Positions 39,032 to 47,052 of a stretch of DNA of 64,000 nt are shown here, piece by piece. Within the stretch, counting starts at the first letter, position 1. Each line of letters opens with the position of its first letter. The stretch comes from an uncultured Candidatus Saccharibacteria bacterium (lineage in GTDB: Bacteria; Patescibacteriota; Minisyncoccia; Phycocordibacterales; UBA918): positions 16,289 through 80,288 of the forward strand of contig CAZWYM010000003.1 of assembly GCA_964638425.1 (NCBI GenBank). Reading direction: 5' to 3'. Below the pieces are notes generated by a model. That model saw nothing but the letters and a program-made list of their open reading frames with translations. It did not search any database and was not told where the DNA came from. Made by a program: the position numbers and the translations under genes.

Positions 39032-40153
39032 ATGATTAGTTCTTTGAAAGAAAGTTTCCTTGATTATCATCAGGCACGAGGGTTTTGTATATATGAGTCC
39101 TTTCCTTTGGTAATTGATGACCCTACAATCCTATTCACAAATGCTACAATAACACCATTTAAGTCCATGTTCATGGGAGAGGGGGAGAGAATAAATTATG
39201 CTCTTGTTCAGAAATGTCTACGTTTAGGAGGGACAGGGGGGAATCTTGAAACACCTCGTTCAAACATGAACTACACTTCCTTATTCGATATGCTCGGAAG
39301 CGGACTATTTGATGTTAATCAAGACTCTGCAGTAACTTACTTCGTTGAAGTACTCATCGAGCTTGGTCTCCAGAAAAAAAATCTCGTGTTTAGCACCACT
39401 TATAATTCTGGTTTTGACTTGGCTTTGGAACGAGCAGGAATAAGTGCGAGTCAAATCAGACTCTTCAACGATCCAAAAGAGATCCAGCACGAATGGAGTT
39501 TTGGGGAAGGAGATTTGCATGGTTGTGGAGTGGTGGCTTGGTGTGTTCCTGAAAGCTATCTAGGACACACTTTCGACAGTATCCCACAAGAACTTTTTCA
39601 GTATGTTCAAATAGGAAGGATAGTCCATATCGATGGTGTTGCACGAGTTTCAACTGTAGAGTTGTTCCCATACTCAGCATACGATATGGGAATCGGGTTG
39701 AATAGGGTTGAGGCAGCTCTCAATGGGAACTGTGAAATGTCTATGTATCCATGGAGAATGCTTTCGAAACAACTTCAATCTTCAATACATGGGCTTTATA
39801 AAACCGATGCCCATTACATGGCGAATCTCTATCGTGTAGCTGAGGATCTGATTGGTGAAGGGCTTCTTCCTGGGAAGAAGAAGCATGCTTATGCTCTTCG
39901 GAAAGTAGTACGATTACTTATCGAGGAGATTTGGCTAAAGTCAAAGGCATTGGTAGATATTTACACAGTGTTGCGGGAGTCGATTAACACATCCGCTTAT
40001 CGAGACTTGCTCATCCAGGTTCTTTCTCAGGAAGAAGTAGCTTTACGTGGGGTACTTTCTGTTGCCATACAAAAGCAGAAGAAGTACCCCGGCATGAATC
40101 CTGAAGAACTGCGTTCAACGTTCGGAATTCGTCCGAGCCTTCTCAAGCTTTAA
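39032..40153 (+). CDS. stand-alone alanyl-tRNA-synthetase catalytic-domain paralog (class II aaRS-like amino-acid activating enzyme)
   Basis: The 373 aa sequence ESFLDYHQARGFCIYESFPLVIDDPTILFTNATITPFKSMFMGE…QKCLRLGGTGGNLET…YTSLFDMLGSGLFD aligns with AlaRS motifs FF..GH..V.SSLVP.NDPTLLFTNAGM..FK…QRCVRAGGKHNDLE…HHTFFEMLGNFSFG. It has no tRNA-recognition, editing or C-Ala domains. The bona fide alaS is elsewhere in the window. Confidence 0.7.
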   Translation: MISSLKESFLDYHQARGFCIYESFPLVIDDPTILFTNATITPFKSMFMGEGERINYALVQKCLRLGGTGGNLETPRSNMNYTSLFDMLGSGLFDVNQDSAVTYFVEVLIELGLQKKNLVFSTTYNSGFDLALERAGISASQIRLFNDPKEIQHEWSFGEGDLHGCGVVAWCVPESYLGHTFDSIPQELFQYVQIGRIVHIDGVARVSTVELFPYSAYDMGIGLNRVEAALNGNCEMSMYPWRMLSKQLQSSIHGLYKTDAHYMANLYRVAEDLIGEGLLPGKKKHAYALRKVVRLLIEEIWLKSKALVDIYTVLRESINTSAYRDLLIQVLSQEEVALRGVLSVAIQKQKKYPGMNPEELRSTFGIRPSLLKL

Positions 40154-40380
40154 GCACTAAAAATTTTTAAGAGGTAACAAAACGAGGGTGCCAACACACC
40201 TTCGTTTTTTTATTTTGAATAGCAAGGTGAGAAAATGGGTAAATCTGATTAAATTTGTAGAGACAATCTGATCAGTTGATACCCAAGTATTCTTTTCATA
40301 TATAAAAGCATATCACTTAATATTTCATAAAGAAAATGACGCGAATAATATCGCGTCATTTAGTTTGAGGCATTACATAC

Positions 40381-41139
40381 TTAAGGAACTATATCTGCTA
40401 TTTCGTTGATGACCTGAGCCCATGTAACAATCCTCTTGATGTCTGGAACAGAATCAAATACTCTAACTTCAACTGTACCGTGTGTCGAAATTCGAATCAA
40501 ATCCCAGCACTGTCTTGGGTCTTCTTCACACCCTCTTGCACGCATAGCTTCATGGAATTCTTCCCATGAAGTATATGCCTGAGGAAGTGTGTCTGAAGCC
40601 ATTAGACGATACAGTGCCATTCTTTGCCCGTTGCAAGTATCACCCATATTTTTTAACTCATAGAAATGCTTAATGAGTCGATTATAGACAATAATTGCTT
40701 CGGTTGTATTTCTTACACCAATATGGAAATGTACCGCTGCGACTCGACAAGCAGCGAGAAGCACTTCTTGTGGGAGTCTTTCCACAATACGGGCATATCT
40801 ACCTGTTGGATCAGGATACACTTCTACAGACATCTCTTGAGGGGCCACTGGTATATGCTCCAGTTTAAGTCCGAGAGTACTAGCAGCTTCAGCAGCTGTT
40901 TTTTCAATTTGAAAAAGCTCAGCGTAGAGATTACTTAGCAAGGTTGGACTTGTACGCATTTCTAATTGACAAGCAGAAAGCTCATAACCGTATTTCCCAT
41001 TTTTCGGTAAAAGATTAAGAACCGATACCGCATGTGGAACAATTACATTGCCATCCATCAGAAAGCATTCTCGTTCAACACCAAAATGTCCTCTATGTTC
41101 AGGCTTAAAGCAAAACCTACCCGTAAACGAATTATTCAT
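40381..41139 (-). CDS. GCS2-family carboxylate-amine ligase (YbdK/EgtA-like glutamate-cysteine ligase family 2)
   Basis: The motifs HFGVERECFLMD (compare YbdK LGIELEMQVV), AVHFHIGV (compare HVHVGC) and GTVEVRVFD (compare GTVEVRVMD) are present. The start was chosen at ATG 41139, preceded by AAAGGGGTG. The ORF caller extended it to 41235. Confidence 0.65.
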   Translation of the reverse strand: MNNSFTGRFCFKPEHRGHFGVERECFLMDGNVIVPHAVSVLNLLPKNGKYGYELSACQLEMRTSPTLLSNLYAELFQIEKTAAEAASTLGLKLEHIPVAPQEMSVEVYPDPTGRYARIVERLPQEVLLAACRVAAVHFHIGVRNTTEAIIVYNRLIKHFYELKNMGDTCNGQRMALYRLMASDTLPQAYTSWEEFHEAMRARGCEEDPRQCWDLIRISTHGTVEVRVFDSVPDIKRIVTWAQVINEIADIVP

Positions 41140-41600
41140 TTCTACACCCCTTTCAAGGATAAAAGATTTAAAAGAACAAAATATATTCGAAGAATTTTTT
41201 GTTGAAATATAATCAACAAAAAAACTCCTCGTCACTGCACATGTTTAATAAACATGTAAAGGGACGAGGAGTTTTATCAACTCACGTGGTACCACCCTCT
41301 TTAGAATTTACATTTCAAAATAAATTCACTTATTGACTCATACACATACCACATTAAGGTATGCAGACATCAATTATCCCATGATTACGGAGGATGCCGG
41401 ACTTTCACTAACGCAGTAGTCACCCTTCTTCACTTGGAAGAAAATTGTGGCCCAATCTCGTACAATTTCAAATTGACGAGACCACAATATGGGTTTTCAG
41501 TGCTCAGAACGAACTACAATAACTAAATTTGATAGTACCGTAGAAAAACACTCCATGCAAATGCTGGTTAACTGAAGCGGATTTTTGTTATAATCACATA

Positions 41601-43444: not shown

Positions 43445-43486
43445 ACATCCTAAGAAGCAAAGAGGGAGAACAGGAGCTTTGTAAAC

Positions 43487-43529
43487 GGCTGGTATTTTGG
43501 TACTATTTTGTGATACCTATGAAAAAGAA
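43487..43529 (+). repeat. direct repeat copy 1 (duplicate of trpS promoter/5' end)
   Basis: The sequence CTTTGTAAACGGCTGGTATTTTGGTACTATTTTGTGATACCTATGAAAAAG. It is 51/52 identical to 44503-44554. Confidence 0.7.
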
Positions 43530-44496
43530 AACTCTCCATGATGTAAAATCGCCTGTTATATATCAAGCAAAGTCTGGTGCTATTGAATTGCGTGGTGACT
43601 TGGAAAAAGAGACTGTTTGGGCAACACTTGACCAAATCGCTACAGTTTTCGGGCGTGATAAATCAGTAATTTCTCGACACCTAAAAAATATTTTTAGTGA
43701 AGGTGAACTATCAAGAGCTTCAGTTGTTGCAAAAAATGCAACAACTGCCGCAGATGGAAAAACGTATAATGTTGAATACTACAATCTTGATGTAATTATT
43801 TCAGTCGGATATCGCGTTAACTCAAAGATTGCTACGCAGTTCCGCCAATGGGCGACCAGGACACTCCGCGAACACATCGTAAAAGGGTACACGCTTAACC
43901 GGAAGCGGATTGGGGCAAACTATGATGCTTTTATGAAGAGTGTGAGTGACATCCAAGCCCTCCTTCCTGAACATGTAACTCTCGACCCAAAGGCTGTTCT
44001 TGAACTTATTAAAGAATTTGCGAGCACGTGGGTTTCACTTGATGCATACGACAAAGAATCTCTCATACTTAAGGGTGTTAGTAAAAAGAAAGTGACTTTG
44101 GTGAGTGATGAACTCTATAAAGCAATTCAAATACTGAAACATGACCTAGAAAAGAAAGGCGAGGCCACAGAAATTTTTGCTCACGAGCGTCGTGAAGGAA
44201 ACCTCGAAGGTATTGTAGGAAATGTCATGCAGTCATTTGGTGGAAAGTCTGTATATCCGACAGTGGAAGAGAAGGCAGCGCACTTACTTTACTTCATGGT
44301 AAAAAATCATCCATTTACCGATGGTAATAAGCGTTCAGGTGCGTTTGCGTTTATATGGTTCCTCAGAAAAACTGGAGTGAAAGGAGCCAAAAACATCAAC
44401 CCATCGGCACTTACAGCACTCACGCTCCTTATTGCAGAAAGTGACCCGAAAAGGAAAGAACAAATGGTCGCTCTTGTGACACAGATGTTGCGATAA
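43519..44496 (+). CDS. RhuM-domain / Fic-Doc family fusion protein (toxin-like)
   Basis: The N-terminal RhuM-like region is (…SVISRHLKNIFSEGEL…NVEYYNLDVIISVGYRVNSKIATQFRQWAT…). The C-terminal Fic/Doc motif is HPFTDGNKRSGAFAFIWFL. The start is at ATG 43519. The ORF caller used GTG 43510. Confidence 0.75.
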   Translation: MKKKTLHDVKSPVIYQAKSGAIELRGDLEKETVWATLDQIATVFGRDKSVISRHLKNIFSEGELSRASVVAKNATTAADGKTYNVEYYNLDVIISVGYRVNSKIATQFRQWATRTLREHIVKGYTLNRKRIGANYDAFMKSVSDIQALLPEHVTLDPKAVLELIKEFASTWVSLDAYDKESLILKGVSKKKVTLVSDELYKAIQILKHDLEKKGEATEIFAHERREGNLEGIVGNVMQSFGGKSVYPTVEEKAAHLLYFMVKNHPFTDGNKRSGAFAFIWFLRKTGVKGAKNINPSALTALTLLIAESDPKRKEQMVALVTQMLR

Positions 44497-44502
44497 ACAC
44501 TC

Positions 44503-44554
44503 CTTTGTAAATGGCTGGTATTTTGGTACTATTTTGTGATACCTATGAAAAAAA
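44503..44554 (+). repeat. direct repeat copy 2 (native trpS promoter/5' end)
   Basis: See copy 1. It contains a candidate promoter, TTGTAA-N16-TACTAT. Confidence 0.7.
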
Positions 44555-45483
44555 GACTACTTACAGGGATGCAACCTTCAGGTGCGCTCCATATTGGAAA
44601 TTACTTTGGCGCACTCAAACCATTTGTTGATGTATACAAGGACTTCGACAGCCACATCATGGTTGCTGACCTTCATGCACTCACCTCACTTCGTGACCCA
44701 AAGACACTTCGTCAAAATATCATCGACGTTGTAAAGGACTACGTAGCGGTCGGAGTGAACCCCGATGAGGCAATTCTCTTTAAGCAATCAGACGTACCGG
44801 AGCATACTGAGCTTGCATGGATTTTTGAGTGTCTCGTTACCGTTCCATTCCTCAATCAAGCACACGCATACAAAGACAAAGTAGCGAAAGGACTCGAAGC
44901 AAACGCAGGTCTCTTCAACTACCCAATGCTTATGGCGTCTGACATTCTCCTCTATGACGTGGATGCGGTACCTGTAGGAGAAGACCAACGACAACACATT
45001 GAGTACGCGCGGGAAGCGAGTACGAAGTTTAATAACGCATACGGAGAAACCTTCACCATGCCAAAGGAGATGATACTTGCTGGTGTTGGTGTTGTACCGG
45101 GGACTGACGGACAGAAGATGAGTAAGAGTTACAAAAACACCATTCCACTTTTCGGTACAACAGATGAAATTACAAAAGCAGTTATGAGTATCGTGACTGA
45201 TTCGAGTGGAGAACTACCAAAGAACGTATACGCTATTCACACTCTCTTTAGAAGCAAGGAAGCGCTTGATGCACTCTACGCAGAACACGCAGGGAAGTAC
45301 AAGAACCTCAAGGATGCACTTATTGCTGATATAGAAGCAGTTGTTTCTCCTATGCGCGAGAAGCGAGCAAGCATTACCGATGCAAACGTAGCATACATCC
45401 TCAAAGATGGAGCAGAGAAGGCACGAGTACGCGCATCAAAGAAGATGCAGGAAATTCGTGAGAAGGTTGGTATTTCGCTCTAA
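44545..45483 (+). CDS. trpS: tryptophanyl-tRNA synthetase
   Basis: Class I HIGH-type motif (PSGALHIGNYFGAL), KMSKS and full-length TrpRS similarity. Confidence 0.9.
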   Translation: MKKRLLTGMQPSGALHIGNYFGALKPFVDVYKDFDSHIMVADLHALTSLRDPKTLRQNIIDVVKDYVAVGVNPDEAILFKQSDVPEHTELAWIFECLVTVPFLNQAHAYKDKVAKGLEANAGLFNYPMLMASDILLYDVDAVPVGEDQRQHIEYAREASTKFNNAYGETFTMPKEMILAGVGVVPGTDGQKMSKSYKNTIPLFGTTDEITKAVMSIVTDSSGELPKNVYAIHTLFRSKEALDALYAEHAGKYKNLKDALIADIEAVVSPMREKRASITDANVAYILKDGAEKARVRASKKMQEIREKVGISL

Positions 45484-45487
45484 TTTC

Positions 45488-45645
45488 TTGACGGAGAGGC
45501 GGGTACGCAGTACTCTACTAGTAACCAACGACGCAGCTGACAACTGCCGAGGCATGCAAACAAAATGAGTGTCTCCTGTGATTTGGCGAAGCCAAATCAC
45601 AGGAGAAAGTAGGGTGGCACCGCGGAATTCTCAATGAGAAACCGC
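45488..45645 (+). promoter_or_regulatory. T-box riboswitch leader (probable Asp specifier) upstream of aspS
   Basis: The sequence TAGGGTGGCACCGCGG at 45610-45625 matches the T-box core consensus (A)AUUAGGGUGGNACCGCGG. A perfect 15-bp Stem III-like hairpin, CTCCTGTGATTTGGC-gaag-GCCAAATCACAGGAG, lies immediately upstream at 45571-45603. The antiterminator can be drawn as AGGG/UGGCACC/GCGG…CCGC/CCCU. The Stem I region contains GCUGACA, a GNUGA-like motif followed by GAC-A. Confidence 0.55.
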
Positions 45646-45705
45646 CCCTGCAGAAATTATTTAACTAATTCTGTGGGTGATTTCTAATTTCCCACTACAT
45701 TCATT

Positions 45706-47052
45706 ATGGAAAGAATTCTCATCAACGATTTAAAAAAGCATCTCGAACAAGAAGTTCTCATTCAAGGTTCAGTTAACGTAGCGCGAAATCAGGGGAAGGT
45801 AGCCTTCTTTGATTTTCGTGACCGTACCGGCATCGTACAAGGAGTCATTTTTGGAAAGCCTGAACTACTCGAGGCGACGAAGTCGCTCCGCGCAGAGTGT
45901 ATTGTTTCTGTTACTGGCGTACTGCATGCACGACCAGAAAAGATGATTAATCCAAATGTTCAAAACGGTGACATCGAACTCGAAATCACCGGACTCGAAC
46001 TCTTAAATGAAGCTGAAGCATTGCCATTTGATTTGGACGGAGAACTCAATATCGACACACTCCTCGACTACCGACCACTCACGCTACGGCGAAAGCATGA
46101 GCAAGCTATTTTTAAAGTACAGCACACTATTCTCAAGTCATACCGCGCATTCCTTACCGGAGAAGGCTTCGTAGAATTCCAAGCGCCGAAGCTCGTGGGT
46201 GGTGACGCGGAGGGAGGGGCGGAGGTATTCCAAGTAGAGTATTTCAATGAACACAAAGCGTACCTCGCTACCAGTCCACAACTCTACAAGCAAATGATGG
46301 TTGGCGTCTTTGAACGTGTCTTTTCAACGGGAGCTACCTTCCGTGCAGAAAAAAGTGCAACGACTCGTCACCTCAGTGAAATCACCATGCTCGACCTTGA
46401 GATGGGATTCATTAAGGACCACACCGATGTAACCGCGCTCGTCACAAAGCTTATGAATGCTATTGTCGCGACCGTAGCAACGGAATGTGCAGACGAACTT
46501 GCACTCCTCAATATGCCCGTACCACTCGCACCTGAGACATACCCAATCTTCACCCTTAGAGAAGCACAAGAACTTATTTTGAAAGAAACGGGTGTCGACA
46601 AGACAAAGGAACCTGACCTCGAACCAGAAGACGAGCGTTTCCTCTGCGAATACGCAAATAAGAACCTCAGCTCTGACTTCGTATTTGTTACCCACTTCCC
46701 AACAAAGAAGCGTTCATTCTACACACATGTCGACCCAGAGAACCCAGAATACACACGAAGCTTCGACCTACTCTTCCGTGGACTTGAAATGTGTTCAGGT
46801 GGTCAGCGTGTACATAATTACGAAACACTCAAGTCACGCATCGCAGAAAAGGGACTCGACCCAGAGAAATTTGAATACTACCTTCAAGCATTCAAGTACG
46901 GTATTCCTCCACATGGTGGTATTGGTATGGGACTCGAACGTCTCACAGCAAAGCTCTGTGGTGTAGGGAACGTAAAGGAAGCAACACTCTTCCCACGAGA
47001 CATCAATCGCATCGACACCTTACTCACTAAGAATACAGACAATGCAGATTAA
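45706..47052 (+). CDS. aspS: aspartyl-tRNA synthetase, archaeal/type-2 (class IIb; AsnRS not excluded)
   Basis: A 448 aa ORF with an N-terminal OB anticodon-binding domain and class II motifs (FRAEKSATTRHLSEITMLDLEM, QSPQ-like ATSPQLYKQ, GGIGMGLERL). Confidence 0.8.
   Translation: MERILINDLKKHLEQEVLIQGSVNVARNQGKVAFFDFRDRTGIVQGVIFGKPELLEATKSLRAECIVSVTGVLHARPEKMINPNVQNGDIELEITGLELLNEAEALPFDLDGELNIDTLLDYRPLTLRRKHEQAIFKVQHTILKSYRAFLTGEGFVEFQAPKLVGGDAEGGAEVFQVEYFNEHKAYLATSPQLYKQMMVGVFERVFSTGATFRAEKSATTRHLSEITMLDLEMGFIKDHTDVTALVTKLMNAIVATVATECADELALLNMPVPLAPETYPIFTLREAQELILKETGVDKTKEPDLEPEDERFLCEYANKNLSSDFVFVTHFPTKKRSFYTHVDPENPEYTRSFDLLFRGLEMCSGGQRVHNYETLKSRIAEKGLDPEKFEYYLQAFKYGIPPHGGIGMGLERLTAKLCGVGNVKEATLFPRDINRIDTLLTKNTDNAD

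Follow-up and report, generated by a model that had tools for sequence, protein, structure and literature searches.

T-box riboswitches are divided in TBDB into class I elements, which are transcriptional and have a long Stem I, and class II elements, which are translational and found in Actinobacteria (PMC7778990). An ultrashort Stem I with the specifier in its apical loop is a property of the mostly translational ileS T-boxes of Actinobacteria, and the only T-boxes described without Stem II are those for glycine, which keep a long Stem I (PMC7583486). Here we describe the leader of aspS, the gene for aspartyl-tRNA synthetase (AspRS), in a stretch of 64,000 nucleotides (nt) of contig CAZWYM010000003.1 from an uncultured bacterium of the Candidate Phyla Radiation (CPR). 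This whole stretch is referred to below as the window, and all features are on its + strand unless stated otherwise. As judged from its sequence the leader is a T-box riboswitch that would sense tRNA. It is rather likely that it responds to tRNA-Asp and controls aspS mainly by transcription attenuation, as a working but leaky switch.

The window leader resembles the actinobacterial ileS T-boxes (class II; M. tuberculosis, N. farcinica) in a Stem I made of a kink-turn (K-turn), a short helix and an apical specifier loop in which a purine follows the specifier. Both are without an elbow-binding platform and have insertions in Stem III and helix A2, and some Paceibacteria relatives of the window leader also keep Stem II and the IIA/B pseudoknot (PMC7583486). 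Unlike the ileS elements, the window leader has a terminator-type hairpin with a U-tract as its expression platform and not a Shine-Dalgarno (SD) sequestrator; together with about 20 relatives it is devoid of Stem II and of the IIA/B pseudoknot, both of which are reportedly essential if tRNA is to bind to members of the actinobacterial class; its host is a CPR bacterium and its specifier is for Asp and not Ile. The glycine glyQS T-boxes of Bacillales, which are transcriptional, have the same order of Stem I, flexible linker, Stem III and antiterminator/terminator and are likewise without Stem II. However, glyQS retains a long Stem I with an interdigitated T-loop platform on the tRNA elbow, whereas Stem I in the window stops at the specifier loop. 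The aspS T-boxes of Firmicutes (Rfam family RF00230, class I) share with the window leader the T-box sequence, the 7-nt bulge, a GAC-preferring Asp specifier, an aminoacyl-tRNA synthetase gene as the target and competition between antiterminator and terminator. They differ from it in about 87 Stem I model positions, Stem II and the IIA/B pseudoknot, all missing from the window, and in the pair at the base of helix A2, which is G-C in the window and not G.U.

Identification of the T-box

The leader lies in a 222-nt spacer that separates trpS (44536-45483) from aspS (45706-47052). An exact 14-nt T-box sequence, AGGGUGGCACCGCG, is present at 45611-45624, within UAGGGUGGCACCGCGG at 45610-45625. 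It matches exactly the 14-nt consensus AGGGUGGNACCGCG, which covers helix A1, the 7-nt bulge UGGNACC and helix A2. The 64-kb window has two occurrences of the pattern AGGGTGGNACCRCG, against 0.00 expected from dinucleotide shuffles. The near-invariant T-box core pointed out earlier by a model working from the letters alone (the sequence-only reading) is therefore present in exact form.

A search with Rfam at gathering thresholds gave no matches anywhere in the window, and both of its T-boxes appeared in E-value mode only. In that mode RF00230 matched 45558-45649 through model positions 150-216 only, that is, through Stem III and the antiterminator, or about one third of the model. For a search of 601 nt the E-value was 9.5e-5, and for one of the whole window it was 0.01. 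The Infernal scan proposed in the sequence-only reading thus returned a hit, at 29.6 bits far below the RF00230 gathering score of 93. This shortfall is due to the missing distal part of Stem I and the missing Stem II, and because of it standard annotation misses the aspS leader.

Stem I and the specifier

The ultrashort Stem I (45524-45553) reads ACC-AAC-GA-C-GCAG-CUGACAA-CUGC-C-GA-GGC. It is composed of a C-stem (45524-26 with 45551-53), a K-turn predicted from the sequence (bulge AAC at 45527-29, G45530.A45550 and A45531.G45549), a 4-base-pair (bp) helix (45533-36 with 45544-47) and a 7-nt apical loop, CUGACAA (45537-43). The stem ends in this loop, and the distal elbow platform (interdigitated T-loop) is absent in the window; an ultrashort Stem I with the specifier in the apical loop is a trait of the translational class II. 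Within GCUGACAA at 45536-45543 the loop holds the Asp codon GAC at 45539-41, followed by a conserved purine, A45542, the two together making up the specifier feature at 45539-45542. The residue 5' of the codon, U45538, is nearly invariant.

Analysis of Stem I in an alignment of 33 leaders (A2) showed that 96.5% of cells pair and that compensatory changes are present at 6 of the 7 pairs, examples being GCAG/CUGC, GCGG/CCGC, ACAG/CUGU, GAAG/CUUC, CCGA/UCGG and CCCG/CGGG. The score of the stem was reached in none of 500 shuffles, and slid controls came nowhere near it. At the base of the stem the predicted fold has the layout of a K-turn (GA motif), namely CC, a 3-nt bulge and GA on one side and GA and GG on the other. 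Its flanking helices covary, and the four K-turn purines, which would form tandem sheared G-A pairs, are invariant in 33/33 leaders.

The third position of the specifier is C in 31 and U in three of the 34 distinct leaders found 5' of aspS, and both GAC and GAU are Asp codons. The consensus of the apical loop is YU-GAY-A(N), with the G, the A and the trailing A invariant. These data confirm a GNUGA-like element with GAC-A as an Asp specifier, which had been put forward as a candidate.

Two observations on neighbouring Asn codons should be mentioned here. A dual GAC-AAC specifier for Asp and Asn was considered and rejected: GAYAAC is found in the window and in the related loci L007, L125, L054, L139, L002/L081 and L014, but most leaders have GACAC(C/U), so that the arrangement is not conserved. 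Separately, three distant aspS leaders (L024, L027 and L032) combine a TGGTGGTACCGCG core with a hairpin that resembles Stem I and has GACAACAC as its loop, so that GAC (Asp) adjoins AAC (Asn). This is intriguing given that a non-discriminating AspRS charges both tRNAs.

Promoter

A -35 hexamer TTGACG (45488-45493), a motif shared with the homologous leaders, is followed after 17 nt by a -10 hexamer TACTCT (45511-45516), which ends 7 nt before Stem I. In 24 of the 34 distinct leaders TTGACN and TANNNT are separated by a spacer of 16-17 nt whose sequence is not conserved; the distance from the end of the -10 hexamer to Stem I is 6-10 nt, again in 24/34. Such a promoter would place the transcript start at about 45522-45524. 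As it ends 7 nt before Stem I, there is no extra RNA domain 5' of Stem I. A 5' hairpin AGAG...CUCU (45495-45516) was rejected as a part of the leader because it consists of the promoter spacer and the -10 hexamer.

Conservation of the leader in Paceibacteria

The best named AspRS matches (73-92% identity) belong to metagenome-assembled genomes of Minisyncoccia, Paceibacterota and Kaiserbacteria, and the same names were carried by the 80 genome loci retrieved with the AspRS protein. These names indicate that the host is a CPR bacterium similar to Paceibacteria/Kaiserbacteria. Homologous leaders were found just 5' of aspS in about 45 of 165 relative loci from Paceibacteria (CPR/Patescibacteria); in many relative loci the T-box core is 88-270 nt 5' of aspS. 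A covariance model (R1), built from ten of the relatives' leaders, gave the window aspS leader a score of 76.5 bits and detected two T-boxes and nothing else in the window. It also detected a T-box in 28 of 84 further loci, in all of them directly 5' of aspS with the exception of L042, and in 16 more aspS loci of the metagenome set. Lack of conservation upstream of aspS had been named beforehand as grounds for giving up the T-box assignment; the leader is conserved in relatives.

In L042 an Asp-type T-box (847-993; GAC specifier, 50.5 bits) is located about 2 kb 5' of aspS and precedes a gene for a 237-amino-acid (aa) predicted membrane or secreted protein. Because a masked run of N separates this T-box from aspS, their arrangement may have arisen during assembly as an artefact.

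The low Rfam score and the alignment of only one third of the model would be consistent with a chance resemblance to a T-box, or with some other structured element. We give this explanation practically no credence: it has to account for an exact 14-nt T-box sequence where 0.00 matches are expected, for conservation at the same position in about 45 loci with covarying helices, and for a loop codon limited to the two Asp codons ahead of an AspRS gene. The comparative data already refute it.

T-box control was said in the sequence-only reading to be restricted mainly to Firmicutes, Actinobacteria, Chloroflexi and Deinococcus. This list needs revising, as the host described here is a CPR bacterium and falls outside it. 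A full-text literature search, with subscription papers outside its reach, found no report of T-boxes in the Candidate Phyla Radiation, Patescibacteria or Parcubacteria. The present leaders would extend T-box regulation to the CPR, and they indicate that annotation by Rfam standards overlooks such elements.

Linker, Stem III and antiterminator

Stem I is followed by a short A-rich linker of 13 nt (45554-45566), and neither Stem II nor the IIA/B pseudoknot is present in the window. The distance from Stem I to the T-box is 55 nt, most of it taken by Stem III. Regular-expression searches showed that the S-turn motif of Stem II and the IIA/B pseudoknot motif are both absent from the window and from 20/34 distinct leaders, and that one or both are present in 12 to 14 of the 34.

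Stem III with its purine flanks (45567-45608) consists of GAGUG (45567-71), a hairpin (45572-87 with 45591-606) and AA (45607-08). The hairpin, 45572-45606, had been described as a perfect helix of 15 bp; it is indeed perfect, with a GAA loop, and the correct length is 16 bp. The flanks GAGUG and AA agree with the RRRxG-Stem III-AA motif given for the discriminator domain (PMC7583486). In relatives Stem III occupies the same position, with a differing sequence and a length of 4 to 18 bp.

Alignment with RF00230 defined a 43-nt antiterminator (45609-45651). It comprises helix A1 (45609-14 with 45646-51), the 7-nt T-box bulge UGGCACC (45615-21), helix A2 (45622-25 with 45642-45) and a 5-bp extension of A2 (45628-32 with 45636-40). 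In a further alignment (A3) pairing is seen in 98.1% of the cells of helices A1 and A2, and there is covariation at the fourth A2 pair, which is A-U in 17 sequences and G-C in 6. The UGGC of the bulge matches G73, the discriminator base expected for tRNA-Asp.

Terminator and fourth strand

The 3' strand of the antiterminator is also used by a weak terminator-like hairpin at 45643-45679 (C45643-G45679; 5 + 6 + 3 bp with a CU bulge and G.U pairs), which is homologous to the terminators of relatives. An alternative register is C45647-G45677. The hairpin is followed by an interrupted U-rich tract, AUUUCUAAUUU (45680-45690), at the place where relatives have AUUUUCGUU or GUUUUUCGUUU. In relatives the antiterminator 3' strand (CGCCCCUAC...) pairs with a downstream GUAGGGGCG, after which AUUUUCGUU or a similar sequence follows; the corresponding 3' arm in the window is GUGGGUG. 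Alignment of the terminator helix showed pairing in 91.3% of cells and compensatory changes at 7/14 pairs. The hairpins of relatives typically have energies of -20 to -32 kcal/mol (extreme -36) and are followed by U-tracts, and their terminator state has an energy advantage of 4-15 kcal/mol over the antiterminator state. Overall, the two structures are mutually exclusive, the terminator hairpin being weak in the window and strong, with covariation, in relatives.

These results bear on several statements of the sequence-only reading. No helix with a U-tract had been seen downstream of the antiterminator; both are in fact present, and the relatives' counterparts are clear terminators. That the hairpin was not recognised is due to its being marginal in the window, and the alternative then offered, a degenerate terminator, is closer to the truth for the window copy. 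When the antiterminator was compared with its possible competitors by folding, as had been suggested, a terminator hairpin was obtained; aspS has no SD that a sequestrator could mask.

Immediately after the U-rich tract there is a short segment, CCCAC (45691-45695), which we call the fourth strand. It is complementary to GUGGG (45673-77) of the terminator 3' arm. A hairpin in which the 3' arm pairs with the fourth strand and the U-tract makes up the loop recurs in about 25 related loci, for example as UUGUAGGGGCG-AUUUU-CGUUCCUACAA. Pairing was found in 81.4% of its cells, compared with about 54% in slid controls, and its energy was reached in none of 300 permutations in which arms were swapped between loci. 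The hairpin covaries and is located 8-20 nt before the SD-less start codon. Since it is transcribed after the termination point, it cannot influence the termination decision. The idea that the fourth strand pairs over a long range with GUAGGG, the 5' strand of the T-box, was considered and rejected because, by eye, the fourth strand follows changes in the terminator 3' arm and not the invariant T-box strand.

Proposed mechanism of aspS control

The analyses above show the sequence elements with their conservation and covariation, which codon for Asp is used and where the promoter lies. From these features we infer binding of tRNA-Asp, discrimination of its charging and termination of transcription, in the following way. 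Transcription from the promoter at 45488-45516 would begin directly with Stem I. In tRNA-Asp the anticodon GUC would pair with GAC at 45539-41 in the 7-nt apical loop of the K-turn-based hairpin, and the uncharged tRNA's 3' end, GCCA, with UGGC (45615-18) in the T-box bulge. This pairing would stabilise the antiterminator (45609-51), so that RNA polymerase enters aspS. With charged tRNA or with no tRNA, the antiterminator 3' strand would pair downstream (45643-79) and transcription would stop in the U-rich tract (45680-90). The second T-box of the window has a textbook terminator with U7, from which it follows that the organism uses intrinsic termination. By its modelled energy the window aspS terminator exists but is marginal. 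As it is much weaker than those of relatives, the window copy is probably leaky.

A number of observations weigh against attenuation by this leader. Its terminator, at -11.6 kcal/mol, is the weakest of 31, and the U-tract is interrupted. In the register homologous to relatives the terminator state falls short of the antiterminator state in stability by 1.1 kcal/mol, and the alternative register gives it an advantage of only 4.0 kcal/mol, tied for the smallest value in the family. The basal A2 pair, G45622-C45645, is G-C in 27/27 aligned leaders and G.U in the Rfam consensus. In published work such a G.U wobble is described as the main device by which the aminoacyl group is sensed sterically; tRNA binding by a short Stem I is said to require Stem II, and transcriptional T-boxes to need contact with the tRNA elbow (PMC7583486). 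No tRNA-Asp gene, in which GUC and G73 could have been checked, was found in the window or in 60 loci. Finally, in the two closest relatives, L161 and L169, whose AspRS is 92% identical, the promoter and the T-box are deleted as a block. The loci L162-L164 (AspRS 89%, 84% and 83% identical) have kept the T-box with strong terminators.

Part of this evidence could be explained by decay. The sensor would then be intact in sequence, the platform would no longer terminate efficiently, and expression of aspS, through the leader promoter and through transcription running on from trpS, would be roughly constitutive, with the element heading for the loss seen in sister lineages. That loss, together with the position of the window terminator as the weakest of 31, argues for relaxed selection. 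Furthermore, in a 27-sequence alignment each of the most conserved terminator pairs (CCC with GGG) fails to form in one sequence, which, as far as can be read from a gapped row, is that of the window, and in place of the 45484-45705 spacer of the window L161 (2972-3001) and L169 (296-326) retain about 29 nt between trpS and aspS that are homologous to the window post-terminator segment. We nevertheless regard decay as unlikely. All invariant positions of Stem I, the K-turn, the Stem III flanks and the T-box are kept in the window, and the Stem III helix is perfect along its whole length. The 3' arm GUGGG, altered as it is, has kept its pairing with the antiterminator 3' strand as well as with the downstream CCCAC, which would not be expected of random decay. 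In addition, similarly small energy gaps are found in L086 and L088.

Possible translational control

The sequence-only reading had proposed that the leader acts on translation by sequestering an SD sequence. There is no SD within 22 nt of the aspS ATG, and among 44 window genes checked only a few have SD-like matches to the anti-SD, the clearest being at gene 39032. SD sequences are thus nearly absent from the window genes, which makes an SD sequestrator implausible in this host, and relatives have canonical terminators with a hairpin and a U-tract. SD sequestration was rejected on these grounds.

In the same set of 44 window open reading frames (ORFs), many have TATAAT-like (-10-like) boxes 10-20 nt before the start codon. 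This suggests that leaderless or very short-leader mRNAs are widespread in the host.

The nearest workable form of the translational idea is a control that is translational or dual, in which the leader acts as a strand relay in the full-length mRNA. In the open state the antiterminator and the 3'-arm/fourth-strand hairpin would leave the start region open. In the closed state the terminator helix would free the U-tract and the fourth strand, and these would pair with the first codons (UUCGUUCC with GGAACGAA), occluding the SD-less start codon. Some hallmarks of translational T-boxes are indeed present, namely the ultrashort Stem I with apical specifier and the insertions in Stem III and helix A2 (PMC7583486), and the 3'-arm/fourth-strand hairpin is conserved and covarying. 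Ensemble modelling gave a start region that is more accessible in the antiterminator state for 21/26 leaders (mean 0.67 vs 0.52; window 0.54 vs 0.37), but the difference is modest and its statistics are overstated because the loci are related. Pairing of the post-terminator segment with the start codon region is strong in five relatives (L007, L015, L018, L083 and L164). However, it is not general: its median rank among coding-sequence windows is 0.24 and it falls in the top 5% in 4/26 leaders. In the window it is weak (-4.8 kcal/mol, rank 32/201). As no SD is available to be sequestered, and as the strong hairpin with a U-tract in relatives has the appearance of an intrinsic terminator, we consider translational or dual control improbable and retain the start-region pairing only as a part of this low-confidence explanation.

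A possible minimal T-box

The architecture of the leader, which is small and lacks parts by which other T-boxes hold the tRNA, is unusual. The aspS leaders of Paceibacteria combine a class II-type Stem I with a terminator, and about 20 distinct leaders, that of the window included, are in addition without the Stem II domain. This combination, a class II-type Stem I with a terminator and no Stem II, was not found in the T-box literature examined. It is possible, although we propose it tentatively, that Paceibacteria carry a natural minimal T-box. In such an element tRNA-Asp would be sensed by the K-turn specifier hairpin (YU-GAY-A-N) and the discriminator domain alone, and these would decide termination co-transcriptionally without elbow contact or Stem II. 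The sensor is about 105-130 nt long, including the 43-nt antiterminator.

Should this be correct, then either the rule that transcriptional T-boxes need a Stem I platform and short Stem I's need Stem II is wrong, or the host compensates. Candidates for such compensation are the stability of loop-loop kissing, a K-turn-binding protein, a slow RNA polymerase and the conserved post-terminator hairpin. The loop YU-NNN-R-N is shaped like an anticodon loop, and a GAC-GUC loop-loop complex, with its two G-C pairs, might have the stability to make up for the missing contacts. A similar argument has been made for the strong GGC-GCC pair of glycine T-boxes (PMC7583486).

The layout would be the smallest so far for a T-box and a natural one: a specifier hairpin and no Stem II, with terminators, several of them strong, in about 20 distinct species-level leaders. 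It opens a test of the minimum RNA needed for tRNA recognition and for reading out charging at transcriptional speed, and it would offer compact parts for engineered tRNA sensors. Furthermore, the aspS leaders show all intermediates, with both, one or neither of Stem II and IIA/B, and complete loss in sister lineages. They are therefore well suited to following how a multi-domain riboswitch comes apart as a genome is reduced.

Neighbouring genes

The gene downstream of the leader, aspS (45706-47052), has a start codon without an SD and codes for an archaeal-type AspRS of 448 aa. A match to NF003483 (481.9 bits against a cutoff of 353) identified the enzyme as non-discriminating, in agreement with the type-2 AspRS that had been named. 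The upstream gene at 44536-45483 was identified as trpS by a match to TIGR00233 (264.9 bits). Neither asnS nor gatCAB was present among the 19 window ORFs scanned, which represent 64 kb only; gltX and trpS were found.

A 50-nt direct repeat is present at 43477-43526 and 44503-44552. The two copies are 98% identical and 1026 nt apart, and they duplicate the 5' end of trpS with its upstream region. They flank a Fic/Doc-family ORF (43510-44496), which looks like a toxin-like gene inserted by duplication of the trpS start. A weak match to RF00558, the ribosomal protein L20 leader, was seen at 40067-40219 (+) with 27.9 bits and E = 0.23, the gathering score being 58.7. This match, part of which lies over the 3' end of a truncated alaS-like ORF (39032-40153), is probably due to chance.

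Second T-box in the window

The second T-box is located at 41257-41439 on the - strand (RF00230, 37.1 bits), with conserved leader sequence extending to about 41515. Its U7 terminator has the sequence CUCCUCGUC...GACGAGGAGUUUUUUU. The element precedes an ORF at about 40381-41220 (-) for a YbdK/GCS2-family carboxylate-amine ligase of about 250 aa, and homologues of the leader precede the same ligase gene in L165, L166 and L168. Next after the ligase gene, L165, L166 and the T-box-less L167 have a class-I glutamine amidotransferase/Peptidase_C26 gene, and L168 has an AstE/AspA-family gene.

A hairpin at about 41350-41370 with a possible Asn (AAU) specifier was rejected, as it is variable or absent in the homologous leaders. 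A covarying 5' helix has on its 3' side a conserved UGG-G, which is a candidate Trp specifier. The T-box bulge has UGGU in three leaders and UGGC in L168, where a gene for tRNA-Trp(CCA) with G73 is located next door; trpS is nearby in several loci. A carboxylate-amine ligase would be an unusual T-box target.

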